In this document: positions 16,301 to 60,386 of the stretch, in pieces | Layout of the letters: every line of letters begins with the position of its first letter | How positions within the stretch are numbered: the first letter of the stretch is position 1 | Assembly (NCBI RefSeq): GCF_964355755.1 | Contig: NC_092674.1 | Location: 13,950,001-14,014,000, forward strand | Direction of reading: 5' to 3' | Source: Antedon mediterranea | Lineage: Eukaryota; Animalia; Echinodermata | Length of the DNA: 64,000 nucleotides | Notes under the pieces: generated by a model | Database searches by the model: none | Seen by the model: the letters and a program-made list of their open reading frames with translations, nothing else | Told to the model about the DNA's origin: nothing | Made by a program: the position numbers and the translations under genes

Positions 16301-17410
16301 GTCAAATGAAGGAGTCTACCTACATACTCGAAGTGACGGAAATCTCTTCAACCTTGCCCGCCTTCGCGCAAAGACCAAGGTGCGACGTCTACTTATTAGA
16401 GAGTTGCTCTTCGCTGATGACGCTGCCATCACAGCCCACAGTGTAGAAGCACTCCAGCGCCTCATTGACTGCTTCTCACATGCATGCGAGGAGTTTGGCC
16501 TTACCATCAGCCTTAAGAAAACGAACGTTCTAAGTCAAGACGCAGCCAATGCTCCTCCTAAGATCAAAATCGGCGATTATACTCTTGAGGTGGTGGAAAA
16601 GTTCATTTACCTTGGTTCCACTGTTTCCAGTAACCTCTCATTTGACGCCGAACTCAACATCAGGATTGGAAAAGCGACATCAGCCATGGCTCGCCTAACA
16701 GATAAGGTTTGGAAAAACCGCATGCTGACTATAAACACCAAGATGAAGATCTACCAGGCTTGTGTCCTAAGCACCTTATTGTACAGCAGTGAATCATGGT
16801 CTCTTTACACCCGCCAAGAGCGCAGATTGAGTTCATTTCATCTGCGCTGCCTGAGAAGGATACTCGGCATCAAATGGCAGGATCATGTCTCAAATAAAAC
16901 CGTTCTAACTCGGGCAAGTTTGCCCAGCATGTACTCACTACTTACCCAGAGACGCCTTCGATGGCTGGGCCATGGAAGGCGCATGGATGACGGAAGAATA
17001 CCAAAGGACTTACTCTATGGTGAGCTTGTCACTGGAACTAGACCTAAAGGAAGGCCCATGTTACGCTTTAAAGACGTATGCGAGCGTGATCTTAAGTCGG
17101 GCAACACAAACGTCACAAACTGGGAGGCTGTTGCCTCCGATCGCAGTATGTGGAGATCCACTATCAAGATGTGTGTCCAAACAAGCGAGAGTAGACGCGA
17201 CAAGAAACGGACGCTACTCAAGAAACGTAGAAAGGAGAGAGCATCCTCTGCTCCAACCGATCAGGAGCCAACGTACATCTGCCCAAAATGTGACAAATCA
17301 TGCCGCTCAAAAATTGGCCTTTTTAGTCACAGCAGGCGCTGTGACCCTGCACCGAATGACGGATAGAGGGCGCATACCTATTGTCTCTCGAGACAAACGG
17401 CTGCCAATTC
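13334..17410 (+). mobile_element. Full-length RTE-clade LINE
   Basis: 11-bp TSD AGGCCTACATG (13323-13333 / 17411-17421), long 5' UTR, APE + RT ORF, RTE-type 3' end. Confidence 0.95.
14182..17366 (+). pseudogene. RTE endonuclease-reverse transcriptase with one frameshift near 14948
   Basis: APE motifs SWNVRT, LQET, GDFNA, TDH. RT motifs FIDLTKAFD, GVKQGCVLAP, FADD. C-terminal CPKC..CRSKIGLFSH. Confidence 0.92.
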
Positions 17411-17838: not shown

Positions 17839-20197
17839 TTATCGTAGTAACATTTTTCTGTAATTGTAGTATTGATTTATTAAATTAATTCGCATCTCTA
17901 ACTTTGATTCAGAAATTGGCACAAAACTATGATGTGATCTCGTTCCAGCAATAGTTTTAGACAAAGCGTATCTTGTATCCAAGTCATACTTTTCTTTATT
18001 TAATTGAATTTGTTCATCTGTTACAAAGAAAAACTTTATTCCTTGAATATGGTCGCAAACCCATCTGTACATATCATCAGCTTTTAATATTTGGTTGGTC
18101 TCTGTCGCTTGCAAGCTTGCTCTTGCTACCAAACGCTTCGTGGTACCACCTATACCATCACAAGGGCTCTTCCCATGGCTTGTGGCAAAGAAATGCCATT
18201 CTGCATGCAAACCATGATCTTTTTTATGGAAACAAATATTTGTCCAATTTTTATAGTTCTTGTATTGGCTGGCTGCCCCATCGCTAAAATATACAATTTT
18301 CTTTATATGAGGCAAGACATCTTTTAAATGTGAAAGTAAAGTGGTAATGAAAGCATGTACAGTTGATGTTTCATGCTTCAATGAATCCGAGATGACGCAA
18401 GTACTCAGGGATTTTAATTCATCATTTTCTTTGTAATAGATTACAAATGGATGGAGGGTTGCTTGACTATTGTCCCAGTAAAACCCTTGTATGGCATCCT
18501 GAATTAAAAAACTATAATTTTCTGCAAAGTCTAACAAAGCAATGGCAGTGTCATCAGAAAGATCCTCCTTCAGTTTCCGAAGATAAGCAGATTGTGATTT
18601 TGTGATGTAATGATGTTGCCGAAGTCGGTCAAATGCATCAGCTACCTGCTCTATAAATTCAGGTAGTGGAAGTTGGAGCGTAGCAATAGTTGTTCTATCT
18701 GTATTTATCCATTGCTTAAATGTTATCGTTTCTTCGAAATCAATTTCATTTTCAGTAAATGTATTTGACAAATCCTCAACAAGAGCAGACTTTCCTGGAC
18801 ATTTTTCACACACTAGCATCATGCAATCTCTGTTGTCAACACTGCATACGATTTTTGACAGGAGATCTTGGTACTCTAATCGACCAGGAATTGCTGATAC
18901 TAAAAGTTTCACATTTTGATGAATTTGGCACACACATACAGAGTGCATACCTCTGCTATTTACCGATACACACCATTTTGGACGAAGGTCACAAAATTTT
19001 GAGAATCCAATTTTGTCATCTGGGTTTTTTATCTTATATAATTTATACAGTTCTTTTAAATTGATAAGAATCAAGCGTTTTTGCTTTTGCACTTTTACAT
19101 AATTGATTCTAACAGAAACAAATTCTTTTTGTCCTGGGCACATCCTTGAATACTCATCCGACTCATAAAACTCAACCACTCGCTGAACAACTTGTGGAGA
19201 AAGGACCTTTCCTTTTTTGGGTGCAGGTACCGCTAAGATCCCATTGGTCTTTTTTAGTTCCCTGGCGGTTCTAACTATGTAGTGAGACACTTGAAATTCC
19301 TGAACAGTCTTCTTGATGCTCCAACTTGGAGGAGCAAGAGTAAGTAGTATGATTTTTTCTTTTGTTGTTGTTGCTTTTGAACACTTCTCTTTTAGTAGGC
19401 CCACTAGTGTGTCCAAATCTTTGCATTTCTTACATGGCTTATCTTGATCAGATGAACTTAATTCTTCCTGAGGAATGTTAAGAACCTTGGAAACTTTAGC
19501 TTTGGATGCAGATTGAATATCACGCATCTTCCTTTTTCCATAGTCAACCTTCCCCTTTTCCCTAACACGCTTGAATGGTGAGCATCCAAGAGATGATACG
19601 CTAACATTGAGCAAGTCATGCTCATTGTCTGTGTCTACAAAGCTGTCGTCAGTTGTTGAATCTTCCTTACATTCTGATATCTTGATATTTCTGCATGTTG
19701 GGCATAGCTTCTGCCCAGGCTTCACATTAAGCAATTTTGCATCATTTTCTTCGATAACTCGTAGAGACTCTAATATAAAAATGAGATTGAAAATTAGACT
19801 ATTATTGTTAAACTATATTATGATAAAGTTTTAAGTCCTTTAAAAGCAGTGGTATATAATTTTAAAATACTGTACCAAAACTCAAACATTAAAAAAATCA
19901 ATAATAGAAATACTTACTTGTAATAGCTTTCTTGTGCCTTTTGAAAGGATCGCAGCATTGTCTTTGTAGACGTTCATAATATGATATGTACTTCTTCTCA
20001 TGATGATTACATATTGTGTTATCATCCGCAAATTCTACAGCAGTTCTCCACTCTAACAGCACCTTCTTCTCCTTTGACAAATCAGTAGCATTTATCAGAG
20101 CATGAGAACCTCTAAATATTGTATTCAAATGGCAGTCTTCATTTAAAGCTAAACCAATGCTACATGGATTTAAATTCTCACCAGTGTTGGATTCCAT
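17839..20197 (-). CDS. Sola2-like DDD transposase, two exons (20197-19918 and 19769-17839), ~736 aa
   Basis: GT-AG phase-1 intron joins the 99-aa and 631-aa ORFs in frame (..KAIT-K-SLRVIEENDAKLLNVK..). Motifs DFAENY, SDGAASQYKN, WHFFATSHGKSPCDGIGG. Confidence 0.8.
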
Positions 20198-22959: not shown

Positions 22960-24150
22960 GTCGCGTATTTGTCAGCCGATTGCAAATTCTCGCCAAAACG
23001 CAACGAACAAAATCAAATGAAAACGGGATAAAAACTGGATAAAAATATACCAAAACACACTGTACATATCCATTTAAAAAGTACTCATGAAGTCGTTTGG
23101 TGATCAATATTGCACATTTAAACATCCGTCAATTGAGTAATGATGCCTCACACAGTACCGTTTTACGGTCTCCGGAAAATCAAAGAATTTTCGATTCTAC
23201 ACTTTTTGTTATACTGCACATTTTAAATGTATAGTAACCAATACGTTCAATGGAGTCAACTAACTGTAAACATCAACAACGGTGTGTTTCTCACAACAAA
23301 ACCTACGTTTTGCATGGGATTGACAACGACGTTTTTTTAAGAGTGCTATTTTTATGCATATTTTAGGTATGTTATTACCGTCGGTTCGCCCTTTCAACTG
23401 AAAATTCATTTTTTTAAATCACACTGAATTATATAGCACCCCTTATTAATAATGTTTGTAACACTTACATTTACCTGAAGATCCAATTTAGAACCTGCCT
23501 TGAGCAAAATACTGCAAACATCTGTGTGGCCATTACATGCAGCAAAATGCAAAGGTGTCCAACCATCCTGAAATATTACAAATAATATTATTATGTTATA
23601 GTATTTTTCACTTTACAACAAACTATTTAATATTGTACTAAAATAAATTAGATGGGATCATGTATAATACTACTTCAATTAAATAATTAAATTTATATAT
23701 TTAAAGTATGATAAATTGTAAAACAATTGCTAACTATAGTTTATTAATATTTGATATTTTCGTAGTAAAGTGCATTACAAACGCATTTGCTTGCATGGTA
23801 TTCTTGTGGATGGTACAGTACGTTTTAAACACTTAATTACGAGATTAACACGGAAACGCTTTTATATCCGATAAGACGTATTTTATATACAATCTTCCAT
23901 TTTAAGATTGTATTGACTTCTGCATTACAAGGTAGTTATTTTATTGTAAGATAGTAAAACGTTAAACGTTGTATAAAGTACATATTTTGTTTCATTACTA
24001 CAATACTTATCAATATAAGTATATGCGAGTTACTTTTTGGTAACTTAAAACCAATTGCCATAAACAGGTTGTTAAATGATACTGGTATGTACTTCTAATT
24101 TATAAAAAAAAAATATTTTAGTTATAAACTGTTAATATTAACTGCCATCT
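22960..24150. repeat. Class-B ankyrin exon module
   Basis: Collinear with 46020-47460, which carries an extra L2 insert. Confidence 0.85.
23469..23567 (-). CDS. Ankyrin-repeat exon E5: DGWTPLHFAACNGHTDVCSILLKAGSKLDLQVN
   Basis: 99 bp, open, canonical AG / GTAAGT sites, phase 0-0. Confidence 0.92.
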
Positions 24151-27333: not shown

Positions 27334-30300
27334 TAGGCCTGTTAAGTGACCCAATCCTTCAAATTGTGATAACATTCTGAAACTTTGCACAGTTATCCAT
27401 TAGGGTGTCAAAAATATGGAATGGAAGGGTTGCACAAAATTTGGTCAGGGGAAAGCCGCCATTTTGGATTTCAAAATGGCGGACCCAAATTGTTCACTTT
27501 TCAGGTATATCTCTGCTAAATAGGCACCTAGAGTTCTGAATTTAGGTGCAAATTATATGGTAATGGGGTCACCCAACATATTGGTATAACTAACATTTTA
27601 ATTGCATGGCGGCCATTTTAGATTTCAAAATGGCGGACTTCAAATTTTCACTTTTTAGGTATATCTCTGCTAAAGAGGCACCTAGAGTTCTGATTTTAGG
27701 TGCAAATTATATGGTAGTGGGGTCACCAAACATACTGGTATAACTAACATTTTGATTCCATGGCGGCCATGTTGGATTTCAAAATGGCGGATTTCAAATT
27801 TCCATTTTTCAGGTATATCTCTGCGAAAAAGGCACCTAGAGTTCTGATTTTAGGTGCAAATTATATGTTAATGGGGTCACCAAACATATTGGTATAACTA
27901 ACATTTTGATTGCACGGCGGCAATTTTGGATTTCAAAATGGCGGACTTCAAATTTTCACTTTTCAGGTATCTCTGCTAAAAAGGTACAGAGTTCTGATTT
28001 TAGGTGCCAATTATATGGTAATGCGTAACCAAACATATTGGTATTTAACTGACATTTTTATTGCATGGCGGTCATTTTGAATTTCAAAATGGCGAACTCA
28101 AAATGTTTCAGTACGGTACCTACAGTTATAATTTTAGGTAAAAAGTATAATATAGTATTGAGGTCAACAAACATATTAGTATAACGTCATTGATTGCATG
28201 GCGGCCATTTTGAATGTAGCTCAACCCGTACTGGCTTTACAATATGTGTTTATGTTCATAATTACATGCATTTAACACGGACACTTATTGTAGGTCACAT
28301 TTTCCCTGGCAACCACACAGCTCTGTACATCGTAAATCACTCTTTCTGCATTTACAGCATCCAAGATCACAGTCGGTGTGTCCAAAGCGAATTAAAACAT
28401 TTGTGACATCTGAAAGTTCTCCAAGCAATGAACTCCAAGCTGGACTAAATTTGTTGCCGTCCTTCCTCTATCCCCAGTTCGCTGGGTCCTGTTCAACCCT
28501 GAATGCATCTAGACAGTCGTACCACTTCCTGGCTTCCGCTTCACATGTTCTCTTAATGCCGCAGATGTTGGGGGATATTTTCAATAGTCTTTCTCTTGTA
28601 AAAAGATATCGTCTTGCATCATTAAATGTTCTGCAGTAGACATAGTTACAACAAACTGTTCTAGATAATCTGTGTCTGTTTCAATAACATGCCCTACAGA
28701 CAATGACATCCTCTCAAAAACTGGAGTCATACATGGCATCTTTTTCAAAGTCTCGTTAAATGTAGCTTTACCTTTTCCTTAAACAGATGAAGTTCTATCA
28801 CAACCGCTAATGGTATGAAAGAACAAGTAAGCGGCTGATGCTTGTGATCCAAGAGAAGAAGCAATCTCGTGTATTGGGATGTACTTCAAGTACTTCCCCA
28901 CTCCAAACTCGATCAGAAGCTCGTGGATGCCAGGTATTCTGTGGAAAGCTGACAACAACATCACTGTGTACAGTCTTGACAATGCGTCGAAAATTTCAGC
29001 GGCAAGTTTAACGTGAACAAACATACGTTCATCTGCCTCTTCTATGTTACATGGCATCAGCGATTGTATATTTACTGGTTTGTTACAGCTCTGTCTCCCA
29101 AAGACCCTACAAACATTCCGTGATTTGTGCCAATGTTATCTACTACTTCAGTTACAATAAATGAAAACAACTCTGATTTGTTGTCATCAAATCTAAAAAA
29201 TGTGGTCCAATTGTTGGGCATGCTCCCGCTGGCTTTAAAGACCCTCCTTACACCAGAAACGCGGTTTGAACGCGTACCAGACTTTAAACTGTCATTAAAG
29301 TATCTATCGAAAAACAAATCTAGTCGTGTCACTGATCGAAGTTGACACAAATCACGGAATGTTTGTAGGGTCTCTAGGAGACAGAGCAGCAACAAACCAG
29401 TCTGTAAATATACAACTGCTGATGCCATGTAACATAGAGGCAGATGAATGTATGTTTGTTCATGTTAAACATGCCGCTGAAATTTTTCCGCGCATTCTTG
29501 TCAAGACTGTAGACAGTGATGTTATTGTTATTGCATTGTCAGCTTTCCACAGAATACCTAGGATCCGCAAGCTTTGAATCGAGTTTGGAGTGGGGAAGCA
29601 CATCCCAATACACGAGATTGTTTTTCTCTTGGACCACAAGCATCAGCCGCTTACTTGTTCTTTCATTTCTTTAGCAGTTGTGATACAACTTCATCTGTTT
29701 AAGGAAAAGATAAAGCTACATTTAACCCGACTTGGAAAAAGATGCCATTAATGACTTCAGTTTTCGATAGGATGTCATTGTCTGTAAGGTAAAGTGTCGA
29801 GACCTAAGCTAATGATAATGGCCGTGGTGCCCATCTCCATTTCTTTAGCGTTTGAGCCAGACTCCACTAAGTGTGTATGTTTGTGGAGGTACGCCACTCC
29901 TCCCGCACAAACGAGTCTGATTTACCTTCCCAGTACTTTTTACATACCGGTACCAATTTCTATCATCTGGGTGGGGAGGAACAATGTGGATAAAGAATCT
30001 TGATTAAGGACTCAACACTGCAGTGACCGACCGGGCTTGAACCAGCAACCTCTTGATTGCAAGTCCAATGCTCTAACCACTGCGCCACAGTGCTCCACAC
30101 TCTCAGATGTCAAAAAGGTTTTAATTCGCTGTGGACACACCGAATGTGATCTTGGACGCTGTAAATGCAGAAAGAGTGATTTACGATATACAGAGCTGTG
30201 TGGTTGCCAGGGAAAAGGTGACATACAATAAGTGTCCATGTTAAATGCATGTAACTATAAACATAAACAAATAGTGTAAAGCCAGTACAGTTGAGCTACG

Positions 30301-30910
30301 TTCAAAATGGCCGCCGGCGGCAATGCAATCAAAGACGTTATACCAATATGTTTGGTGACCCATTACCATATAATTTGCACCTAAAATCAGAACTCTGTGT
30401 ACCCTTTTAGCAGAGATATACCTGAAAAGTGAAAATTTGGGGTCCGCCATTTTGAAATCCAAAATGGCCACCATGCAATCAAAATGTTAGTTATACTAAT
30501 ATGTTTGGTGACCCCATTACCATATAATTTGCACCTAAAATCAGAACTCTAGGTGCCTTTTTAGCAGAGATATACCTGAAAAGTGAAAATTTGGGGTCCG
30601 CCATTTTGAAATCCAACATGGCCGCCATGCAATCAAAATGTTAGTTATACCAATATGTTTGGTGACCCCACTACCATATAATTTGCACCTAAAATCAGAA
30701 CTCTAGGTGCCTTTTTAGCAGAGATATACCTGAAAAGTGAAAATTTGGGGTCCGCCATTTTGAAATCCAAAATGGCGGCTTTCCCCTGACCAAATTTAGT
30801 GCAACCCTTCCATTTCATGTTTTTGACACCCTAATGAATAACTGTGCAAAGTTTCAAAATATTATCACAATTTGAAGGATTTGCCTAAAATATGCACCTT
30901 AACATGCCTA
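27334..30910. mobile_element. Palindromic Academ-derived element (two 3' halves head to head)
   Basis: TAG..CTA ends with AATCCTTCAAATTGTGA subterminal motif and ~154-bp tandem units in both arms. XPG-like (EEADERM..FHTISGCDRTS) and Cys-rich (RCKCRK..TELCGC) remnants on both strands. Confidence 0.8.
29789..30100 (-). mobile_element. tRNA-derived SINE (family 2)
   Basis: A box TGGCGCAGTGG, B box GGTTCAAGCCC. Absent from the mirror arm of the host element. Confidence 0.8.
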
Positions 30911-37230: not shown

Positions 37231-39510
37231 TTATACACAGATGGTGACCTCGCTTCGCTCGCTCCCAATCTAGGAAGTGTAGACGACGGTTCTCGGAATG
37301 ATAATGCCTCGGGTCAAAAGGTTTTAGAAGAACGTTCTGGCTTGGACGTTTTCGGTCGGTTACCATTATTGAAATACTTGATATTCGTAAAACCTACTCT
37401 GTTTCACAGTGCCTTAGATGATTAATAACATAGTATAGTGTTTATTGTTTGATAGGGCCCTTATAGAGTGGAGGTGGGAAGGCAGAGTTCATTTGAGGTA
37501 GGTCCTAATTCGAAGGATAAGTTTAATTTTTGGTAATAAAGAACAACAAATTAATGCTTGGTAAATTGTTGATAACAGTCCGATAAATTCTACTACAAAT
37601 AGTATAATTGTATTATAAATATAATACAATATTGTGTGTAAATGTGGATGGGCGTTTATTAGATTATTAGTCTATGTGATGTTTTATTGGGGAGGTGTTA
37701 GGCGTTTATTCAAGTAAATACCATCCTAATTGGTATAATTAATACATTTAATTTAAACATCTTTTGAAACTTCCGCGACACATTTGGCCGTTTCGGCCTA
37801 AAAAGGAAGACGTTTTAGAGAGGGGGACTAACAGGACACAGATAGCGCACAGCTATACAGACGTCCTGACAGCTTACACAACAACTCGGCTCTCGGGGTT
37901 TCACTCAATTACAGACAAAATGTCTTATCATCAGTTCTCCCAATGTAATGTTATATACTATTCCCTAAAATATACTCAGATGCTTTATGAATATGTTTAA
38001 TCTGATCTTTATTAATTTGCAGTATAATTTTTATTTTGATAACTACTACTACCTTCACACGTGCGCGGTCAGAAAATAAACAAAAACTAAAATGGCTATC
38101 GCCACCAACGGCCGACTTAGTTGAAACTTTGTTTTTCCCAAAGACTTTCTCTGAAAGATACGTGAAAGATAGCCGAACTACTTCCTAAATATAGCTAAAC
38201 CTAAACCTCTAAACAATCTCTCTGACTACAAAGCAACAATATACAATAAAGCAAGTTGGTCATGGTATTTGAACCCCATACATCGGCAATTCAAAGTCTA
38301 AAGTCAAATCCATCCGACTACACAGACGGCTCGAAGGAAATCCTATTAAAGTCCATTCAGAGGGCGAGCGCAGAGCAGATGAAACATGATGCATATTCAT
38401 AATAATGCTCCCTAGAATGGGACGCCCTTTCTCGGATTTTCAGAGAAAGTTTTTATTGGGAAAAACATTTTCACAACTCGGAACTAACTTTACTGCCGAC
38501 GCTTAAAAATTTAACGATGAAACCCAACATTTCGTTTTAAACCCTCCATGATATCTTTCTAAGAGAGAAATATGGAAAAATATCGTAATAGTGAGAACTA
38601 ATGTTATCAAAACTACGTTTCGCAGCCTTATGTTAATTATGGAATAGGTAGACACAATGTAAAACGCATATCACTAACTCCGTGTCGGTTCTCACTCTAG
38701 CTGTTCCATGAGGTAATGTCTTAGATAGATATTATAGGCCTAAAGGGTTTTAAAACAAGATTTCTGATGTAATGTTAATTCTGGATTCGTCATTCCTTTG
38801 CGATTTCCGGGTAGGTTGCAACTACACTGTAAAAAATAATTCGGCATGGGTAAAGTCCGACGGTTACACTACCAATTGCGCGAGAATTGTATTACCCTGG
38901 AAGTGCGGAGGAAACCATGCGATATGACGACTGTCGCGTGGAACAAGTCCATATTTTTAATAATTATTTTTATTTTGCATATAAGACCTATTTTTGTATC
39001 AGAAAATTCTACTGTTTAATATACAGCTGAAGTAGGTGTTATCAGTCACGGACTAAAAGATGAAAAAATAAGGTAAGCTTAAAAAGTAGGCCCTAGGCCT
39101 AGGGCCTAGTTAAGTTTAGTTCACTGCTCTGTATGTATGCGCCCAGTGCACGAGGATACTATGAAGTGTAATCAGCCTCGCCAAGTAGGCTTGGTCTAGG
39201 CCTGATGACATTGCTTAGTCTAAATTGCTTAGTCTCCGCTAGTGGCTGGAGTAACAATAAAATCTCTGTACAAAACGCGTGTTTCTCTCTTTAAACGACA
39301 ACATGAACTAATTATATAAATTATAATGCAGAAGGTTATGGTTTGGCTATTTAGTTATTATTATAATTATTGTGAATCAGACTGTTTAAAACTTAGTGCG
39401 ACAGACAGTTATTACAAAGTGCGACATCTCGATTACTACAAAGTAGGCCTATGACGATTATTACAAAGTGCGGCAGTACAAATAACGTGGTTTATAGATA
39501 GTAATTATAA

Positions 39511-41130: not shown

Positions 41131-41279
41131 GTAGGTCTTTTTGATCTATAATAATGACCCGCAATGTTAATTGGTTCATTTAGGTATGTTATTACCGGCA
41201 CGCCATTTAAATTAAAAACTTTTTAAAAATCAAACTGAATTATGTAGCACCCCTTATAATTAATGTTTGTAAAACTTAC

Positions 41280-41378
41280 ATTGTCTGGAAGATCCAATTT
41301 AGCACCTGCCTTGAGCAAAATAGTGCAAACATATGTGTGGCCGTAATATTCAGCCAAAAGTAAAGGTGTCGATCCATC
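41280..41378 (-). CDS. Ankyrin-repeat exon E4: DGSTPLLLAEYYGHTYVCTILLKAGAKLDLPDN
   Basis: 99 bp, open, CTTTCAG| acceptor and |GTAAGT donor, phase 0-0. Confidence 0.88.
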
Positions 41379-44300
41379 CTGAAAGATTACAAACATTATG
41401 GTATAGTACTTTTCACTCTACAACATATTTAATCTTTTACTAAAATCAATTCGGTATGATCAATTAAAAATAATTTTATGTAAATAAATAATGCCAAATA
41501 AGATTTTTCGGATGATGTATTGTGGCGTATACATCTATTTTGCTTGTATAATATTCTTTTTTTATAGTACTGTACAAAATAAATGTTTCTTAGCTTTGCC
41601 TGAAATGTAAACATTTCCAGTAGTGCTAATGTATCTGAATGTAAATTATGACACAGAGTGGTGTTTGCGTTTAAACAGGCAGTTACGACTGAAAACGTAT
41701 CCAGGCTCCAAAATGTTGACAATGAATGTTGGCATGACATGATAAACAATAAACACGTTACTTTTAACAGAGTTCAACTTAGATTTTTCTCGGGTTACTT
41801 AGATTTCGTTCTTAAATACGGTGTATTGTCGTATTTATTGTCATGCCAAGTGTTCTCTACATTGCGATATTACAAAAGTTTGGGTACGGACATTTCTCGA
41901 AGTATTATAGGGTAACACCGTGGCTTAAAAATATATTGTTTATTATAAAACATAGACCTTTGCAAAAACACTACTTAGTTTATTAATGAAAAATATCTTA
42001 ATTAAAATATACATTTGAATTAGCTGTACGTGAGTGCAAAACATCTAAATGAATATGTATTTACAAAAAGCTACAATTATGTTTCCGAAAATTGTTTTTT
42101 TAGACCACACTAAGTGGTTGGTGTAACTTCACATTAATGATAATTATATTGAAACATTATATGTTAATTAGTCACCTTAACCTTGCCATATACGATGATT
42201 TAAAATTCTGAGTTTAATATTATAGTATTACAGTTGAACCTCCGTAAGAGGCCGCCTCTTGAGCGGCCGCGGCAAATTTGTTTACAACACATTAGATTGT
42301 TTGTATGGTAAATTATCTCCCTGTAAGCGGTCACCCAAAAAAAAAAATCGTATTGACTTTTGAAAAAAAGACCATATACATGGCTGCATTCGCCCGCAAA
42401 ATTTTAGCTGACCGACCAACTGACCGACCGACATATTGAGCTGTAGAGTCGCGTTTTGCACGCGACTAAAAATACAATTTGATACTAATATTGTGCTTTA
42501 TATATTAGGTTTATTTCGAAGCGGTTTTAAAAATATTTCTGTGAAGAACATTCCTGTATTTTTTTTAGATGAGATGAGAAAACTACACAGATTTTTACCA
42601 ACCGATTGTCTGAAAATCATAAATAATTATAAACCATCTGTTTATAAATTAAATGGAGAATATAGAGGCTGGTTGCGTTCAGAAATCCGAAAAATATCGT
42701 GATTTTGGCCCTCTATCGGCAGAATCTCCCGTAATCGGCCACTTTTCAATTCCATAAAATAAGGCAATTAATAGTAGTTGATACCTTAGTGGTTATAACA
42801 GCCCAGGGCTGAACTTGAACTCATCAAGCCCAAAGTCGTTCATTTTTGTCGCAAATACTGTAATATGTAATATATAGAGTAAATGGAAGAGTAAGCAACT
42901 GAAGAAAAGATATTTAGGGCTAGCCAAGATATCATAAGGAAGCGCATTAATTACAATTGTCACGGCTGCTCTCTTCAGAAAAAAGCGAACCTACGAACCC
43001 CACTTGCTATGGGCTTGTCCTTCACCTTGACGAGTTCGAGTTATCCACGTTAACGCACACCCTGTAACTAACATTAAATATACATACTCTATGACCCGAA
43101 AAAAAAATATTTATAGTGTGCTGAATTGTGTCTATTCTGTGTTATACAATATTAAGTGCGAATAACCAATAAGTAAAGGTTAATATTCTATTCTATTCCG
43201 TTTATTCAGTAAAAAGGCCTAAATTGTACTCCGATATGTTACTTTTCACTATGATGACACGATTACGAAATCAGCAACAGTTGACTAGGTATCAAACGAA
43301 GTAGGAAAACATGGAGTAGGCCTAATCATGGTCATTGAAATATAGTTTAGACATGGTACATAATATAGGTCTCTCGTTGTAAAGATGGTGGGAAAAATCC
43401 AAAATGGCTGCCAGTAAACTAGGAAATCACATACAGTATCTGTGAACGGCAGAAGTATGTAAATGAAATAGCTGTAGATGGTAGAGGTAGTATGTAAATT
43501 ACAAGTAACTGTAAAAAAAATAAAAAAAAAAAGTTACAACCAGTTCAGTTTCTGAAACCACATAAAATGTGGTATTTTTGGGAAAATAAAGATTGAGGGC
43601 GCTGTTCACATAAGTAAAAGTACACTTTTTTACCTGTAACTAACTAAGTTTTTGTCAGAATATTTTTTAAATGGTCTTATTTGATAGATAATTACATTTT
43701 CTTTATATTAAAGATAACAAATTTTACATTAAATATCCATAGTTCAGATAAATTTACGTTAAGTGCCTAAAATAGGCAAATATAACACATTTTAATACAT
43801 AACAAATACTATTGGATGTTAACAAATTACAAATTTAGTTATCATAAATAGGATTCTTTTACATTTTCATATAAACTGTTTCATTATAAAACATATAAAT
43901 ATATATTTTTCTCACAATTTCTCATAAAAAAACTTTTACGACCACTAGTTTTCGAGATATAGAAATGTGTACTACCAGTACAGGTCAAAGGTCAATAACA
44001 AGAATCTGGGTCATTTTCTTGGAAAAGTTTGTATTAGACTGAATAGAAACATCAATCTTCTGATTAATTTGAGACCTATTCAAAGTTTGTCCAACTGTTA
44101 GTTACCAAGTTATATGACATGTAGGTCAAAGGTTTCAACTCCTAATAACTAATTGCCTTATTTTATGGAATTGGTATCTATTAATTACTTTGGTGTGACC
44201 TTAATGGATATACCAGCTCTTAGGAGGGGACAAGTAGAGTCACTGAACTGAAATGTCACCTCACTGGACTACTCCTTAAATAGTCATGTATATTCTGTAA

Positions 44301-46521
44301 TTATCACTTTTTGATTAACACACTTTGGAAATAACTTGAACTGATAGCTACAACTTAATCACTCTCTGTGTACATATAGTGTAAATACATACCGTTGAGA
44401 GAATTTAACAACAGTCTGTGTCATTGATATAAAGACTGCTACATAAGTTAGATGTTAACATTAATTCCTATTTTTTTATGAACGCAAACATTGTAACGAA
44501 CAATGAATCCTAATTATAGTTTTCCAATAAATGCTACATTGAACTCGTCAAGCCCGAACCAGAATTTATTTTCATTTGTTCGCAACTGAAGAAAATACAT
44601 TTAAGCCTATAGCCTAGATTTCAAAAGTTAATCCTTATTTATAACTTTCACTGCTGGTCTAAAAAGACGAACCATACGAACCCATAGGCTAGGGGCTTAC
44701 CGTCACCGTGACAATTATGGTTATCCGCGTTAACGAACACAGTGTACCAAACATATTGAAAACATGTTTTTAGTGTTCTGAATTGTGTCTTATAGTGCAT
44801 TGTATGTTACATTTTTCTTGATAGCATAATATTCAATTTGTTGGTGGATTGTACTTTTACGAGTCCAGTTAAGCATAATTGTGGCATTTATTGTCCAATT
44901 CCGAGCCTTTTATCGTCTGACTTGATTTGTAATACTGGTGTCCTTTTTCGTGACATGATCTCAAGCTAGTAGATCTCATTATCCAACTACTTATTTTCGG
45001 CCAATTGTTCTCTTCACCACAAAATCACATCCCTCTCCACTTCAAAATCCTGTCTACTGTACATTCTTGTTGTATTTTGACACCGTGATACCTTTATAAC
45101 ATTCAAGATGTCTGTGTCTCAACAACCTACGCCAACATCGGCAAATGGGGCATCACCTGTTTTGACTCTACTGCTATCCTCTGTTCTATTCTTATATAAG
45201 CGTTTACTAAGTTTATCCAGTAAGTTTAACTTAGCTTTCTTGGCATTACTTCTATTACTTATGAACGCAATTCAAATGAATATGATGACAATTTGTTTTT
45301 TTAGTGGGCTGAAATATTAACTTAAATTGACGTAAACGCTCATATACTGTCAGTATTTCTTTTATTTAAACCATTTCCCATTTGTACAGAGAACTTGAAA
45401 AGAAAACAACTTTTTTCATTTATCGCCAAACGCGAGTGTTGCCACACGAAAATAACACAGTCAATATCATCGTACTCTAGAACTTAGTGGATTTTATATG
45501 TTTAATGACAGGGACACGATAATGACGCAACAATTACTCAGTCAATATCATCGTACTTGAGGAAATATATACGATTTACGATCCTCGCAGAAGTATACTC
45601 ATGTGATGCAGTTTCAGCTAATCACGTTCACGTATTTACATATAACATTTAATAAAAAAATATTTTTTCAAGTTCAATTAGTTCCCCTTAATTTATAGTC
45701 CTTTAAATCTTTCTAATAATATTATTATTTTTTCCATCTTTTCTGAAAATTGATTACACCACATTCAATTGGGTTGATGTAGCCTACTTATTTGTCCATA
45801 ACATTGAACTGTTACATTCTATCACTTACACTATTAAGATTACACACATGTTCATGTGCGCCATAATATTGCTCAATATTCTATACCACAAATGATTGTG
45901 CAAGTACGCGTATGTATTGATTCAACATTACTTTATTTGGGGTTGGTACAGTATATTCATGTGAAGTATATCAATATGGTCAACATTCGGGACACCAAAG
46001 AGTTCAGGAGTTTACCGTGCTTGGCGTGTTTGTCAGCCGATTGCATATTCCTGCCAAAACGCAACGAACACACTCAAATGAAAACGAGATAAAAATATAC
46101 CAAAACACACTGTACATATCTATAATAAAAAGTATGGATGGAGTCGTTTAAGTGATACATATTGCACTTAGATGTTAAACAGATCACCAATTAAGTAACG
46201 ATTCCTCACACAGTACCGTTTTACGGCCTTTATAAAATCAAGGCATTATCGGTTCTACACCTTTGGTTATACTACACAGTTGTAATGTATAGTAACCAGT
46301 CCGTTCAATGGAGTCAGCTAACAGTGTAAATATCAACGATCGGTGTGTTTCTAACAACAAAGGCTAAGTTTTTCATGGGATTTACAACGACGTCTTAAGT
46401 GCTAGGCATATTTTAGGTATGTTATTACCGGTTCGCGCTTTAAATTTGAAAAATTAAATCATTTGTTTTAATCACACTGAATTATATAGCACCCCTTATT
46501 AACAATGTTTGTAAAACTTAC

Positions 46522-46620
46522 ATTGGTTGTAAGATCCAAATTAGCACCTGCCTTGAGCAAAATAGTGCAAACATCTGTGTGGCCATTACTTGCAGCAGAA
46601 TGCAAAGGTGTCCATCCGTC
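46522..46620 (-). CDS. Ankyrin-repeat exon E3: DGWTPLHSAASNGHTDVCTILLKAGANLDLTTN
   Basis: 99 bp, open, canonical splice sites, phase 0-0. Confidence 0.92.
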
Positions 46621-46857
46621 CTGAAATATTACAAACATTATGTTATAGTATTTTTCACTTCACATCAAACTATCTAATATTGCAATAAAATCAATTAGAT
46701 GTGATCATGTTTAATACAAATTTAATTAAATTTATATTATAATTTAAAGTATGTGTAATCAGTGCTACTAAGCGCCTTTGATGATTACATTGTTTACTTA
46801 ATTATGGCAACGCAAACACAATATAAGTATATTAAAGTTACTTTTTGAAACTTAAAA

Positions 46858-49588: not shown

Positions 49589-52170
49589 ATCATCAGTGGG
49601 CCGTTAATAAGAAACACGTTTTAAACGGCTTGCAACAGGAACCAAAGCATCCCTGGTCTCAATGACGATGCAGTACATAAAGATAGCGCGCAGTCTGTTC
49701 AAACATAACAGCAACTCAACAACTTTGCTACCATTCGGCTATATCGATTTCTGATATAATTTTATATACTGATTTTACAATTTTCCCTGCAAAATACCTC
49801 GATGATGTTTTAATATGCTGGACTTTTTTTTTTGCAGTATAATTTCATTTTGTTTAAACTACAGGCGTTGCCCGTGAAAAAAAAACCCTGCCGATGAAAT
49901 TAGAAATGTTGTTTTAAAACTGTCTATAATATCTGCCTAAGAGAGAAATATTATAAAATCTACGTTTCGCAGTACATCTGAAATAGGAAAGGTAGGTATG
50001 CAAGGTGGAAATCTCAGAAATAACCATACTTTATATATAGACACGCTAACATTGACCTCGTGGAGCACATTTAGCTCGTAGTATCATACACGTGCACATA
50101 TAGCTCATCGCGTTGGTAAGTCACAAACCTATTAGTGATTTTTTGTTATTATTATAGTATTATGTCAATGAGGCTTAGTAGTATTCCACATGCAATATGA
50201 ATTGAGAAAAAGAAAAATAACGACAATTGTATTATGACTGTGACCGAATTAACGCTTTAAAAAAGCATTATTAAATACATACCGATAGGTCTATGTGAAC
50301 GGCCGATACTAACCACGATGCATTGCTTTTAATTACTCTTTGTAGGCCTACATTTAGTCTTTGATCACTACATTGGATGCGTTATTATGTTTCTTGTAAA
50401 CAGTCATTCTACATGCTTTAGATCATAGAAATAATTACTTTGTTAGGAGTATCTGTACATTTAATGTACGATGATACTAAACGATCGCAATTGACATACT
50501 AAAAATAATGTAAACCAATATTGCTAGAGTTCAATTAAAGCAAAGGTTTCTTTTATGTTTGAATGCAATTATATTTAGCTAAACTTATTGTTGTATTAAT
50601 TTAGATACACAAATAAAAATATGAAATCATAAGAAGAAACATTCGGGAATTACCAATCGTGATCTTAGAAATTATATTCATGACTAATGTGTCTATTTTA
50701 ATATTTGAAGTAATCTTTTCTTTATATTATGTCATTTGAACAATTGAATAGAACATGAACTCAGTACTTATGGATTTTAACCCACGAAGCCTCAACCTTT
50801 GCAATCGAACATTTTACCGGCACAAACGAAGCAAATTGAAAAAGTCAACATGTTGCTGATCTGGTAGATACCATTGAAATGTTAGCGAATCAATACGCCA
50901 TGTGTCTTAGAAAAGATAGTATTAAGGTTTTTTTTATTTTCTGATGTCATCGGTAGACTTTTAATGGCGGTAAAGTTACTTCCGAGTTCGTTATCACTTT
51001 GCGATGTCCGGGTTGCAACTACTGTACAACTTCGCTGTAGTCACAATAAAACCTCTGTACGAAACTCGTGCAGCTGTCCCACATGTGAACTGACATGTAC
51101 ATTTGATATACATTTGAGTCAAAATATTCTATATTTCTCTCTTTAAACAAACTAAAAAAAATGAACTAATTTATATTAATTATACTGTATATGGTTTGGC
51201 TATTTAATATTATTGTACTGTAACTCAGACTGTTTAAAACTTAATGAAGAAATAGCTCATAATGTTTAATATGTTATAAATTGTGCATACACTACGATAC
51301 GACGTGACGTTATTATTACAGTAGTAGACAATGTATAAATATTATAATGTACCGATGATAAGCCGACTCGCAATAAAATTAATAATATTACAAGTAATCT
51401 ATATATAAATTATGGTTAATTCTGACATAGGCGAGCACAATGCAAACACTTCGGTACAAATCTCCGCCTTGGAGACCTACCTTATCTATCTCAGATGTAC
51501 CGCGAAACGTAGATTTGATAACATTAGTTTTCACATCGACGCTATTGTTCCATATTTCAATCTTAGGAATATATTATAAAGGGTTTTATAAGAAATTTTC
51601 TGATTTCAATCGTTAAATTTTAACTCTGCGCGCGGTAGAAGTAATTTCCGGGTTCACGGTAAGGTGTTGGTTTCAACCAGGGAGTTGTAAAACAACTACC
51701 TGTTTCAAGTGCTTGGTGGCGATAGCCATTTTGTGTTTTTTGTTTATTTTCGGACCACGCGTGTGAAGGTATATAATAGTAGTACATAAACCCCGATAGC
51801 CGAGTTGTTGAGTAAGCTGCCAAGACTTTATGTATAATGTGCGCTATCTGTGTCCTGTCAGGACCCTGGGATACTTCTGCCCATGTTGCAAGCCATCTAA
51901 AACGTCTTTTTTCTTAGGCCACTGTGTCGCGGAATAATGTATTAATTATACCAATTAGGATGGTATTTATTTGAATAAACGCCCGGAACACCTCCCCAAT
52001 AAAACATCAATTAAAATAATTATCTCGCTACCAACCCCACCCCAAATACATCTATTAAACGCCCATCCACAATATTATATTTATAACCCAATTATACTAT
52101 TTTAGTAGATTTCTTCGGACTATTATCTACAATTTACCAAGCATTTGTTATTCTTTCTTACCAATTTTCA

Positions 52171-53632
52171 TCTATATATAAATTTACGTAAGGGCAACAT
52201 TCGATAAATCGCAGTTTATTTCTAGAATTTTTACTCGATGGTATGTAAAGTTGGTTCGTACTTTCGGTACTGATTTTAACCATCTGATGTAACCATTGTT
52301 TACTAATTAAATTGAGTTAGATAATTAGTTATTGACGATTAAAACGAATTTAGGTTCAACGATTTGCCCCAAATAGGGGTGTTTCGTGGTCGTGGTATAC
52401 ACTGTCTAATGGATGTCCAACTTGAAAAATACCCGCAGACAATAGTGCGAGGATGCTTCGCATTTTCCTATCTCCTCCTACGATAATTGTTTTTAATAGC
52501 TGAAAACCGGTTGAACACCTCGAGTACAGCATCATAATGTTGAAGACAGGCCGATTTTCTTTAAAAAATACTATTTTGATAGATTTAATATACGTTTTTA
52601 CAAATGTTTTGATCTGCGATAAATGGAACATTCCAATCTCTGTTCCACAAGTGTCTATTCCCTCAGGCGTCGTAAAGACACGTACTGTACAGTCATAACA
52701 GAAATTCGATACATTTTTTTCCAATCTGTGGAATCCTTTTTTTTAACGCATAATGAGCTACCCTTTCCAGTCGCCGTCTATTATGTACAATCAACTTTAT
52801 TATTGCAGCTAAACCACCACCAACACCACCACCCTCCCCTCACTGGCATGAGTAGCGTTGTAAAGCCAGTAGAGGACAGGCCTACAGTACGAATGATCAG
52901 TACATGCCCTAAACGCAGAACAACTTTGGTGGTTGGGAAACAACTTAATTTTCAATACAAGTTGGGTAGTGGGTAGCATAATTGGCTCTATGAAACACTT
53001 GACCATTAGGCCTACTAATTAAGTTGAGTTAGATAATTATTTATTGACGATTAAAGCGAATTTACGATTTGCCCCGAATAGAGGTGTTTAATATATTACT
53101 GACAGTTCCTTCTGAACGTTTGTAATCATGTAACTTCAAAAAAATATAAACGTCGTATTAGTGATGTATCGTTACATGTACTGTACTATTTCACTCGACT
53201 ATGACGGTGACAGTTTCAACAAAGTATTAAATCGCAATGTTTTACTGTGTTTACTGGTATATTATTTGTAAAACATGAAAACAATTCATATTTCGTTACT
53301 AAATCGATAAAGAATATATTTAAAAATTGTTCGTCTTTGCATCCATCCTCTTCCCCATCCCTCAACCCAAATGTTACATACAAAACACAAATTCAGTTTG
53401 TTTCTTATTTTGTGACAAACTTCTTTTTCGGAAGTAATTCCCGGAGTGCTAATTTTAGTTGAGTACATAAATCACCGTGTCTATTTATTCGTTCCTGTAA
53501 ACAACATGTATTATTGTCCTGCATGTGCATTTGAAGTCGCCAGTTTTTTAAACGCTGAAATTACTATGTATTCGAGAACCATCTGTGGGCACGACCTAGA
53601 TGGTACGCGAGCGAAGCGAGCGTACCATCTAG
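52171..53632 (+). mobile_element. Non-autonomous Helitron
   Basis: A|TCTATATA...CTAG|T boundaries; 13-bp stem at 53596-53632 with GCGAGCGAAGCGAGC core; flanks join up as one repeat. Confidence 0.8.
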
Positions 53633-54145
53633 TATCTACAATAAACACTATACGCCTAAAACGCTATTAATCATCTAAGACACTTAGGTTAGTGAGTACG
53701 TTTAGTTTTACGAATATCAAAAGCATAGTAACCGACCGAAATTGTCCAGGCCAGAATGTCCTTTTAAAACTGTTTACGACCCGAGACATTATCATTCCGA
53801 GAACCATCGTCTACACTTCTTCAGTAATTATTATTAATATTTATAAAGATTAAACAAGTTATTACAAAGTGTGACACCAGTTGTTACAAAACCTTGGTTA
53901 ATCTGACTTTCAAATTTCAAGATTAACCTTGACGAGGCAGCGGTGTTCCGAACCATGTGAGGGGTACAACCGTGCAGTTCTCGACAATTTAGTTGCAACA
54001 AAAATGATCTGTAATATGACCCGCGATGTGGTTGCTTCATTTAGGTATGTTATTACTGGCACACCCTTTAAATTGTAAAATTAAACACTTTTTAAATCAC
54101 ACTTAATTATATAGTAATATTATTATTAATGTGTGTAACACTTAC

Positions 54146-54244
54146 TTTGGCCTGAAGATCCAATTTAGCACCTTCCTTGAGTAAAATAGTGCAAACACCT
54201 GTGTGGCCGTTTTGTGCAGCCAAATGTAAAGGTGACCACCCATC
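54146..54244 (-). CDS. Ankyrin-repeat exon E2: DGWSPLHLAAQNGHTGVCTILLKEGAKLDLQAK
   Basis: 99 bp, open, canonical splice sites, phase 0-0. Confidence 0.92.
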
Positions 54245-54632
54245 CTGAAATATTACAAACATTATGTTATAGTAATTTTTCTCTAAACAAACTATTATAA
54301 TATTGTCCTGAAATCAATACGATGTGATCAATTGAAAATGACGTTATAGATTTAAATAATGCTACATTATTAAATTAAATACGTATACATTTGTCTTTCT
54401 TGTATAATATTTTTATATAAGTGCTTTGTAAATGTATAAAAACAAATAAGTGGGCTTTTTTGCCTAAAAAGTAAACACTTCATCCGATAGTACTAACTAG
54501 TCTGAGTGTAAATTATGATAAAGGGGCGTTTGAACTGGCAGTTACAGCTAAAATATCCAGGATTCAAATTTTGTTCAGGTAACACATTTTGACTGCTAAA
54601 TTCTTACCATTCATGGTTTCATTTTACCGTTA

Positions 54633-55167: not shown

Positions 55168-56870
55168 GGTTCTAGGACACCTACCCCCTAGACAGTTACC
55201 CCCCGGATGTTTACCACCCGGACAACTACCCCCTTAGGACAACTACCCCCCGGACAACTACCCCCCGGACAACTACCCCCTTAGGACAATTACCCCCTTA
55301 GGATAACAACCCCCCGGACAACTACCCCCCGGACAACCACCCCCTTAGGACAACTACCCCCTTAGGATAACTACCCCCCGGTCAACTACCCCCCGGTCAA
55401 CTACCCCCCGGTCAACTACCCCCCGGTCAACTACCCCCCCCCCCAATCCAAAAGTAGACAAATATATAGGACCGGTTTCTGTAAAAATGAAATCATCTGT
55501 TTTTAACGGGTGTTTCGAAACTAGAGACCGGAGACCAGAGACCTGACACGAGACCCAATACGAAAAGGGAGATCTATATTTGGGTCTCCCTTTTCGTATA
55601 TTAGGGTCTCCCTTTTCGTATAGTGTGGTCTCTCTTTTCGTATAGTGGGGTCTCCCTTTTCTTATAGTGGGTCTCCCTTTTCGTATATTTAGGTCTCCCA
55701 TTTCGTATATTTGGGTCTCCCTTTTCGTATATTTGGTCTCCATTTTCGTATATTTAGGTCTCCCTTTTCGTATATTAGGGTCTCCCTTTTCGTATAGTGG
55801 GGTCTCCCTTTTCGTATAGTGGGGTCTCCCTTTTCGTACGTGGGTCTCCCTTTTCGTATATTTAGGTCTCCCTTTTCGTATTGGGTCTCGGGTCTCTGGT
55901 CTCTGGTCTCGGGTCTCTAGTTTCGAAACACCCGTTTTTAACCGATTATTCTGTTTAACAGCACGCTAGACCCTAGATGTGCTAGATTTAAAGTACCGTA
56001 TTTATTGAAAAAACGGCCTGGGCTGTTTATTGTTTATGTGGTTTTTAGGTGGACATTTATTGGAAGAAAGTTGTTTATTCAATGGGAGGGGGTATAATCT
56101 AATGGAAATAGACGCCGATTATTCCATATGATGTTTCATGGGAGTGACATGGTCACCGTTTATTTGAGGGGAATTTATTTAAAGATCGACGTTTATTCGG
56201 TGAGTGAACATTGAGGTCAAATATCAAAAGTGATATTATTCTTCAAGTTTACAAAAATACATATATGACAAATTTGAGACAAAAATTAATTCTTTTAAGA
56301 CCAGTGGTTATCGAAGCATTGTCCTGACGCAAAAATTATTATTATTATTAGCGAACCCAGTCTTTACAGTAAATACATGGAGTACTATATAATACGTTCG
56401 ACTATCCTATGATCATGTGTGACAATCTTCAGTTTATACCACCAGGCTATATTTATGTTCAATCTTTTACTTTTGTTTACAATAATGAATAGTAATTCGT
56501 CAAAGTAACGAATTAAAATATAGTTATTAATTAATAGTTGCAGAGTCAGGTTGTTGAATGGTCTGGGTGGTTAGGGTGTTCTAAAGGGATAGTTTTCTGG
56601 GTGGTAATTGTCCGGGGGGTAATTGTCCGGGAGGTAATTGTCCGGGGGGTAATTGTTCCTAGGGGGTAATTGTCCGGGGGGTAGTTGTCCAGGGGGTAGT
56701 TGTCCTAAGGGGGTTGTTGTCCTAAGGGGGTAGTTGTCCGGGGGGTATTTGTCCGGGGGGTAGTTGTCCTAAAGGGGTAGTTGTCCTAAGGGGGTAGTGG
56801 TCCAGGTGGTGGTTGTCCGGGGGGTAGTTGTCCGGGGGGTAAATGTCCAGGGGGTGAATATCCGGATACG
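55168..56870. mobile_element. MITE with GGACAACTACCCCC-repeat arms (MULE- or hAT-like)
   Basis: Inverted tandem arrays at 55170-55440 and 56590-56870; 8-bp TSD GTTTTTAC. Confidence 0.75.
55508..55933. mobile_element. Nested MULE-like MITE
   Basis: TIR GGGTGTTTCGAAACTAGAGACC, 9-bp TSD GTTTTTAAC, internal ~22-23-bp GGGTCTCCCTTTTCGTATA tandem array. Confidence 0.85.
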
Positions 56871-57420: not shown

Positions 57421-57492
57421 GGTTTCGTAGTGTAGTGGTTGTCAAGTCTGCTTAACACGCAGAAGGTCCCGGTTCGAGCCCTGGCGAAATCT
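57421..57492 (+). pseudogene. tRNA-Val(AAC)-like, probably a pseudogene
   Basis: Acceptor GGTTTCG/CGAAATC; anticodon arm TCTGC-TTAACAC-GCAGA; mismatches in D and T stems; downstream T-run. Confidence 0.72.
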
Positions 57493-58640: not shown

Positions 58641-59056
58641 TTATTATTACAGTTGTAGACTATGTATAAATATTATAATGTACCGCGATGGTAAGCCGAC
58701 TTGCAAAAAAATTAATAATATTACAAGTAATATGTATTATTAATTTATAAAGATTAAACAAGTTATTACAAAGTGTGACATCAGTTGTTCCAAAACCTTG
58801 ATTAATCTGACTTTACAATGTCAAGATTAACCTTGACGAGGCAGCGGTGTTCCGAACCATGTGAGGGGTACAACCGTGCAGTTCTCAACAATTTAGTCAT
58901 CCTCGCAAAAAAAAATGATCTGTAATATGACCCGCGATGTTGTTGCTTCATTTAGGTATGTTATTACTGGCACGCCCTTTAAATTGTAAAATTAAACACT
59001 CTTTTAATCACACTTAATTATTTAGTAATATTATTATTAATTTTTGTAACACTTAC

Positions 59057-59155
59057 TTTGCCATAAAGATCCAATTTAGCACCTGCCTTGAGCAAAATAG
59101 TGCAAACATCTGTGTGGCCGTTTTCTGCAGCCACATATAAAGGTGACACTCCATC
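59057..59155 (-). CDS. Ankyrin-repeat exon E1: DGVSPLYVAAENGHTDVCTILLKAGAKLDLYGK
   Basis: 99 bp, open, canonical splice sites, phase 0-0; lies within ORF 59018-59230. Confidence 0.92.
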
Positions 59156-60386
59156 CTGAAATATTACAAACATTATGTTATAGTATTTTCTCTCTCTAAA
59201 CAAAGAATTATAATTTTGTCCTAAAATCAATACGATGTGATCAATTAAAAATGACGTTATAGATTTAAATAATGCTACATTGTTAAATTTAATAAAGAGT
59301 ATTAAGCCTTTTCTTTAAGATAATGTATTGTATACGTATACATTTTTCTTTCTTGTATAACAATGTTTTATAGTGCTTTATAAATGTATAAAAAAATTAT
59401 AAATAAGTGTGTTTTTTTTGCCTGAAAAGTAAACACTTCATCCGGTATTGCTAACTAGTCCGAGTGTAAATTATGATAACGTGACCTTTGAACTGGCAGT
59501 TACAGTTTAAAATCTAGGCTCCAAATTCTGTTCAGGTAACACATTTTGACTGATAACTTCTTACTATTGGTTTAATGTTACCGTTACTCTTGGAGGAGAT
59601 ATATGTCTTTTTTAAATGTTTTATAAAATAAAAAAAATCTCGATTTATATCCATTTATTGTATCATTTTGCATAAAATACAGTGTTGCCCTACAACACAA
59701 TACAATGCAAAAACAAAAAACTGAAAAAACAACGACACGTCATTCTCTAACATCCAGTGCCCTAAAGGCATATTGTATTACAATGATTACGGAATCTATT
59801 ACGAGAGGTGATGGACCTTTTCTTTGAACGTTAAAATAGTGCATTGGATATGTTGGGTCTTGCAAAATTGAAAGTGTTTCCTCAGTAAAGTCTCTTATAA
59901 AAATGAATCAAATTGAGATCTGCCTAATTATAAGTACTGTAGTCATATACGTGAAGCATAACTAAAAATACGTTCCAACTAATTCTTACATGTGGTCCGG
60001 GTAAACTATAAAACAATGAATAATGAGATTTCTTTCAAGGACAGATTTATACAAAAAAAAAAGACGTAATGCCTAATGGGAGGGTTAACTCCAAAATATT
60101 TGGATTTTTTACGCAAAGGTAAAGCCTATTTGATATTAGGTTATTTTCCTTTTTTTCTGGGTTACTGTATGTGTTGAAAATACTGTATGGGTTGAAAATA
60201 CTGTATGGGTTAAAAAGGTCGTAAGATGTTAGTTTATTAGTATAGAGTACTGAAAACCATAATAGTAGGTAACATTTGTAATTGAGGGCGTTTTATTTGA
60301 CACGACAGAGCATGTGAACTCCCCAAAAACGTACCGTATCATAATGTAGTATTATTTTAAATTTTGAAATGACATAATAAACATTG

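Follow-up and report, generated by a model that had tools for sequence, protein, structure and literature searches.

A short inverted repeat around each of six duplicated ankyrin exons in Antedon mediterranea, probably inherited passively with the exons

Results

Six one-repeat ankyrin exons in a repeat-crowded window

The window, i.e. the whole stretch of DNA analysed here, comprises 64,000 nucleotides of contig NC_092674.1 of the echinoderm Antedon mediterranea. It is AT-rich (GC 28-47% per 2 kb) and crowded with fragments of retroelements and other repeats, among which lie six intact ankyrin exons, all on the minus strand: E1 (59057-59155), E2 (54146-54244), E3 (46522-46620), E4 (41280-41378), E5 (23469-23567) and E6 (7015-7113). 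Each is 99 nt long, in phase 0 and devoid of stops or indels, with junctions of the form CAG|GAY...AAW|GTAAGT, and the GT-AG introns between them measure 4.8-17.7 kb. The two exons scanned against Pfam, E3 and E4, match the Ank model PF00023 end to end (positions 1-33), and a profile built from all six exons recovers ankyrins and DARPins in the PDB. They thus show the layout of a symmetric-phase exon that encodes one ankyrin repeat and is tandemly duplicated, and presumably belong to a single transcript. A profile search recovered no seventh ankyrin module in the 64-kb window.

Amino-acid variation across the six exons clusters in codons 3, 7, 8, 11, 12 and 31-33. The ratio pN/pS is ~0.94 over whole exons and 0.48 at DARPin-type positions, which we take to be the binding residues; across these six exons it thus lends no support to diversifying or positive selection. 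Protein searches added little: the search against longer proteins gave 4490 generic ankyrin matches, the best 120 of which are 39-68% identical to the array and contain no instance of the word VCTILL, while the search against proteins of near length yielded two candidates and one match, unrelated to the array. The exon pattern had no matches in the metagenome scans, and the single metagenome match to a gapped arm-exon-arm pattern was rejected as chance, with no ankyrin-like reading between its arms.

Several other elements populate the window. A near-complete non-LTR retroelement (14110-17366, plus strand) encodes an endonuclease of 293 aa and a reverse transcriptase of 812 aa in different frames. 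A 657-aa stop-free frame lies at 17839-19812 on the minus strand and has no Pfam match above the cut-off; we take it to resemble a transposase-derived ORF. Inverted structures are frequent: an element of ~3.5 kb at 27353-30881 has long inverted arms in which the tandem unit is 154 nt, and encloses a second inverted pair (28692-29133 / 29342-29789), and an inverted pair at 4706-5555 / 6020-6840, 91% identical and with tandem units of 18/41 nt and ~122 nt, lies ~180 nt downstream of E6. The E1-E2 intron contains a nested inverted structure at 55173-56865, with 15-17-nt tandem arrays as its outer arms and a 22-nt array inside, which is a candidate foldback or MITE-like element. E3 and E4 together lie between long copies of a repeat in inverted orientation, at 37274-38623 and 51398-53819 (in pieces of 61-415 nt with 70-87% identity); far larger than the 12-mer described below, they could loop out or circularise that block if transcribed together. 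The Rfam scan of the window gave two matches overall, none at an ankyrin exon; both are tRNA-like and intronic (57421-57492, plus strand; 30026-30091, minus strand), and are possibly heads of tRNA-derived SINEs.

A 12-bp inverted repeat flanks each exon

Every ankyrin exon is accompanied by a 12-bp inverted repeat, with an upstream arm at -20..-9 of the acceptor and a downstream arm at +8..+19 of the donor. The downstream arm thus starts 7 nt past the donor and the upstream arm stops 8 nt short of the acceptor, in agreement with the offset of 7-8 nt given by the sequence-only reading. The repeat is perfect in E4, where TAATGTTTGTAA at 41261 (downstream arm, 41261-41272) and TTACAAACATTA at 41387 (upstream arm, 41387-41398) match over all 12 bp, lie 114 nt apart and carry a terminal TA at both ends. 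E3 retains 11 perfect bp followed by a U-G pair (downstream 46504-46514, upstream 46629-46639). E1 and E2 each match at 11 of 12 positions, with C>A at +15 in the downstream arm of E1 (59038-59049; upstream arm 59164-59175) and A>C at +13 in that of E2 (54127-54138; upstream arm 54253-54264). In the remaining two copies indels have broken the repeat: the upstream arm of E5 (23576-23593) has received a 6-nt insertion and a G>A change that leave 7 bp perfect, its downstream 12-mer (23450-23461) being intact, and the downstream arm of E6 (7000-7007) has lost 4 nt, its upstream 12-mer (7122-7133) being intact. All arms lie on the minus strand. The arm coordinates and match counts reported earlier for E1-E4 are all reproduced on the sequence, and what had been described as a weaker repeat at E5 and a partly deleted one at E6 corresponds to these indels.

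At the RNA level the register runs further inward through two G-U pairs, giving up to 18 pairs between -21..-4 and +3..+20. The resulting consensus stem covers donor positions +3..+6 and the acceptor tract, so that its loop consists of CAG-exon-GT alone. The earlier proposal that a stem would mask splice signals therefore has its geometry borne out, the predicted stem spanning the signals on both sides and reaching further than claimed.

Complementary arms in both flanking introns exceed chance expectation for one exon. Among 8582 overlapping pseudo-exon positions taken across the window, 3 have a perfect inverted repeat of at least 12 bp within 15 nt of both borders; the analytic chance is 1.6e-4, and overall we arrive at ~2-4 x 10^-4 per exon. 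Shuffling the downstream +7..+40 segment gives p=0.001-0.04 per copy, and the duplex energies are ordinary when set against random pairs of 40-nt windows 99 nt apart (p=0.04-0.34). As the six copies go back to a single ancestral event, this low per-exon chance counts only once, and one event of ~10^-4 would be expected to recur often once large numbers of genomes are scanned.

The modules are related far beyond the arms

The exons and their flanks form modules that are homologous in all 15 pairwise comparisons over at least 61 nt upstream and at least 101 nt downstream of the exon. The six modules are common by descent, and the earlier statement that the copies amount to one observation is accordingly right. 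They fall into two groups, E1/E2/E6 and E3/E5, with E4 intermediate. Within these clades the homology reaches 980 nt, with further homologous intron blocks interrupted by insertions; across groups the modules have in common a core of about -90..+105, and an invariant 17-mer in the intron (transcript strand GTAATAACATACCTAAA) marks the precise downstream end of this cross-clade homology.

This 17-mer lies on the minus strand 85-94 nt past each donor and is identical in all six modules: 58951-58967 (E1), 54040-54056 (E2), 46412-46428 (E3), 41179-41195 (E4), 23362-23378 (E5) and 6913-6929 (E6). No change has accumulated in it where 7.4 would be expected (P=0.0006, for a single window out of about 70), and it is better conserved than the downstream arm. 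On the plus strand it reads TTTAG|GTATGT, resembling a splice junction. It is a candidate regulatory element or, alternatively, a candidate conversion or crossover boundary. The idea that it competes for pairing with the donor was considered and set aside, the predicted duplexes (-5.0 to -5.9 kcal/mol) being weaker than those of other nearby 21-mers.

Within the exons, codons 13-30 (window 41289-41342 in E4) are near-invariant even at silent sites (pS 0.026), as compared to a pS of 0.33 with multi-base codon changes in codons 1-12 and 31-33. Patchy gene conversion and constraint at the DNA or RNA level are both candidate explanations of this pattern. Taken as a whole, the patchwork of the modules suggests unequal crossing-over together with gene conversion, processes under which even an unselected repeat can stay recognisable.

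Reads from four of nine sequencing runs were compared with the window. For run X1 (DNA) the summed contig depth in exon-containing bins was 692, 834 and 1324 versus 38-350 in several other bins, a quantity that is distinct from copy number, and the read-based contig table includes contigs that join the flanks of different modules. These data hint at an ankyrin module family larger than six. Run X5, whose RNA nature is a guess, has coverage in each of the 30 bins of a stretch that is largely intron, just as the three other runs do, and is therefore uninformative on splicing.

Conservation and covariation of the arms

Both kinds of test described here draw on six related copies and a handful of events, and their power is low. 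When the six copies are aligned, 90.4% of the 104 cells are paired (10 of the 104 are unpaired and four more are gapped) versus 36-53% in slid controls, although the structure was derived from the same six sequences. Nine differences fall within the 18-bp register: a single one, U-A to U-G, keeps the pair, and the other eight, two of them indels, break or interrupt it. The two register differences that are shared between copies (+7 and +20) are unpolarised. None of the 18 pairs shows a change on both sides among these related copies, and RNAalifold finds none of 42 pairs compensated, its covariation term being unfavourable (+2.33). The E5 copy, after acquiring its insertion, has gained five A-U pairs in register, at +18..+22.

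The downstream arm is the sole part of the repeat that is free of splice-signal constraint. Its identity is 0.82, and 40 of the 80 overlapping 12-nt windows in +20..+110 are equally or better conserved. With the E6 deletion excluded, parsimony assigns it three substitutions versus 5.2 expected (P=0.24), and assigns six versus 6.1 expected to +7..+20. No excess conservation of this arm over the adjacent intron is detectable in the six copies (P=0.24-0.59; Fisher p=0.53): it changes at a rate indistinguishable from that of its flank, and without compensation. Positions +8..+11 are invariant in all six copies. The three substitutions in +8..+19 are all singletons, i.e. none is at clade level as compared to 17 of 91 flank columns (p=0.21), which is the direction expected under purifying selection but is non-significant. 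The upstream arm has an identity of 0.97 versus 0.92 in the neighbouring unpaired -33..-21 block (p=1.0) and is conserved above the distal intron (p=0.01), probably because it falls within the branch-point and acceptor zone.

The sequence-only reading had named three observations that would count against its stem: a lack of covariation, a repeat no better conserved than the adjacent intron, and constitutive inclusion whatever the stem. The first two are what we observe in the six copies, the second for the downstream arm, and the reading is thus supported in part; the compensatory changes that it had suggested looking for among the paralogous exons number zero by either count.

Predicted folding

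Minimum-energy folds with 25-nt flanks close the exon by the stem in all six copies (z -0.1 to -2.6). Partition-function folds with 40-nt flanks, the context proposed earlier for a check, give the stem a probability of at least 0.5 in four of the six. With 150-nt flanks this falls to three (E3, E4 and E5) at 37 C and to two at 20 C, the pairing probability in E1, E2 and E6 being ~0. The expected fold is thus recovered in some of the copies, and in fewer of them in the wider context. Cognate arms form duplexes of -7.5 to -13.9 kcal/mol. The downstream arm of E5 reaches -17.8 kcal/mol when matched to the upstream arm of E1, E2, E3 or E6, and in general cross-exon duplexes, whose arms lie kilobases apart, are as stable as the cognate ones or stronger. 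The suggestion that arms of different exons could pair is therefore upheld as far as predicted energies go. An effect of the stem on splicing is possible, since short complementary matches act in C. elegans zip-2 and in Drosophila minigenes.

Discussion

A single ancestral accident as the probable origin

The repeat is a real feature of these exons, and we consider it probable that it was inherited by exon duplication and is passive. The following history would account for it: a single ancestral accident would have placed, immediately past an exon's donor, an inverted copy (12-13 nt) of the intron adjoining that exon's acceptor; replication template switching is the presumed source of this copy, with plain chance as an alternative. 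Duplication of the exon together with its flanks would then have multiplied the repeat passively, and unequal crossing-over with patchy gene conversion may have spread it. The predicted RNA stem would be a by-product, which may permit leaky in-frame skipping of E3-E5 rather than act as a maintained switch.

The inverted copies that template switching produces measure 12 nt at the median, and in most cases a single inverted repeat is left behind (PMC7954356). The ankyrin repeat conforms to this picture in being a short perfect inverted copy near its template (a 12-bp core with arms 114 nt apart), much as the copies described there are single, short, perfect inverted repeats of ~12 nt placed tens to hundreds of nt from the template. 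It differs from them in its location, next to the acceptor and the donor of a single exon, and in having been multiplied at least sixfold, and its origin is deduced after the fact. Several points weigh against a passive origin: the register reaches exactly to both splice dinucleotides, with G-U pairs; the substitutions in +8..+19 are all singletons, +8..+11 is invariant and E5 has gained in-register pairs; a 13-nt match suffices for skipping in zip-2 (PMC8330042); and the conservation tests have low power with six related copies.

A possible selected stem that ties acceptor to donor

The strongest competitor, which we nevertheless regard as rather unlikely, is a selected RNA clamp. Here a stem of up to 18 bp would tie the acceptor tract of an exon to its own donor and lower inclusion, cross-pairing arms would drop blocks of exons, and stem strength would tune an in-frame repertoire; as every exon is 99 nt long and in phase 0, each skipped product would stay in frame. 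The pairing excess over slid controls (with its structure taken from the same sequences), the closure of all six exons in minimum-energy folds with 25-nt flanks, and the cognate and E5 cross-exon duplex energies all speak for such a clamp, as do precedents. In zip-2 a 13-nt reverse-complementary match promotes skipping and circles (PMC8330042), in Drosophila minigenes intronic stems of at least 9 nt act, with compensatory rescue (PMC2724269), and alternative splicing of one-repeat exons has been reported in brown algae (PMC11378527). The zip-2 and Drosophila stems resemble the present case in having short complementary arms of similar length in both flanking introns, which could loop an exon out. 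They are, however, conserved across species and tested by deletion or compensatory mutation (PMC8330042 and PMC2724269), whereas the arms here overlap the splice signals of a single 99-nt exon, lack covariation and have been disrupted by indels in two of six copies.

Against the clamp stand the absence of both covariation and excess conservation in the six copies and the pairing probability of ~0 in E1, E2 and E6 with 150-nt flanks. Further, the stem is AU-rich and closes a loop of at least 104 nt, as opposed to a co-transcriptional window of ~60 nt cited in PMC2724269, and the conserved Drosophila boxes lie on average 60-80 nt from splice sites. Part of the inner pairing (AAGU/AUUU) would in any case be expected from the splice consensus alone.

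A broader form of this idea is somewhat less probable still: each exon would carry its own acceptor-donor clamp with interchangeable arms, so that stochastic folding would drop repeats or blocks in frame. One gene would then yield a combinatorial repertoire of receptors, in which mutations in the arms would tune how often each repeat is included. The closest parallel in architecture is presented by the ROCO-LRR and NB-ARC-TPR arrays of brown algae, which likewise consist of symmetric-phase one-repeat exons that are duplicated, recombined and variable at some codons (PMC3341825 and PMC11378527). In contrast to those arrays the repeat here is ankyrin rather than LRR or TPR, and here no exon lies on the opposite strand. 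The strings 'inverted', 'palindrom' and 'secondary structure' do not occur in the main texts of these two papers. A literature search at the level of titles and abstracts, with most subscription journals outside its coverage, found no paper on inverted repeats around ankyrin-repeat exons.

Transposon or cassette origins as improbable alternatives

An origin of the arms as terminal inverted repeats (TIRs) of an ancestral intron derived from a small DNA transposon (5' end GTAAGTGTTACAAACATTA, 3' end TAATGTTTGTAATATTTCAG), which was subsequently copied along with the exon, appears improbable. Counted from the intron ends, the arms do sit at +3 and -4, which is within the 20 nt where the TIRs of Introners were sought. 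Complementary sequence at either end of the intron, no more than 20 nt from the splice site, is a feature shared with TIR-bearing Introners; in a tandem array, moreover, the repeat brackets each intron and not just each exon. Such TIRs are found in 72 of 177 Introner families, some of which have no target-site duplication (10.1101/2022.06.06.494994). However, a target-site duplication is absent at AAT/AAA|GT...AG|GAT, both flank profiles match the six modules alone at significant E-values in the 64-kb window, with no copies at unrelated positions, and the spread here was by exon duplication. The kilobase introns (4.8-17.7 kb) also contrast with family medians of 30-654 nt, and among animals and plants Introners are present in just two groups (same source). 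An extended but decayed inverted match further out in the flanks was rejected: one of the six copies gives p=0.004, and the pooled value is non-significant (p=0.06-0.09).

The sequence-only reading had also raised a recombination cassette at the DNA level. In such a cassette the arms, as sites of recombination or ends of a transposon, would let individual ankyrin exons be excised, inverted or moved, which is very improbable. The perfect E4 repeat with its terminal TA, the mosaic modules (E4 groups differently in +21..+60 and in +104..+140) and the contigs that link flanks of different modules would fit it, but flank homology continues far beyond the arms in all 15 pairs, so that the arms are not mobility boundaries. 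Inverted recombination sites should yield inversions, yet all six exons share one strand, and neither an empty nor an inverted module is present in the window. The exon borders lack a heptamer/nonamer layout, and exon removal at the arms is not seen among the best 15 of 364 joints.

Implications

The reading that we favour, of a repeat inherited passively with its exon, would make this locus an illustration of how one short inverted copy turns into a convincing motif through exon duplication, and hence a warning against taking motifs shared by paralogous exons at face value. Should the stem be functional, the six copies would constitute a natural titration series, one scaffold with six stem strengths and in-frame products, for a minimal stem that covers the splice sites. 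Were the array of clamps real, it would offer an explanation in cis for the diverse splicing of repeat exons in brown algal receptors, which has so far been described without a mechanism. For the animal itself, a working stem would be a candidate mechanism for combinatorial diversity of repeat domains.
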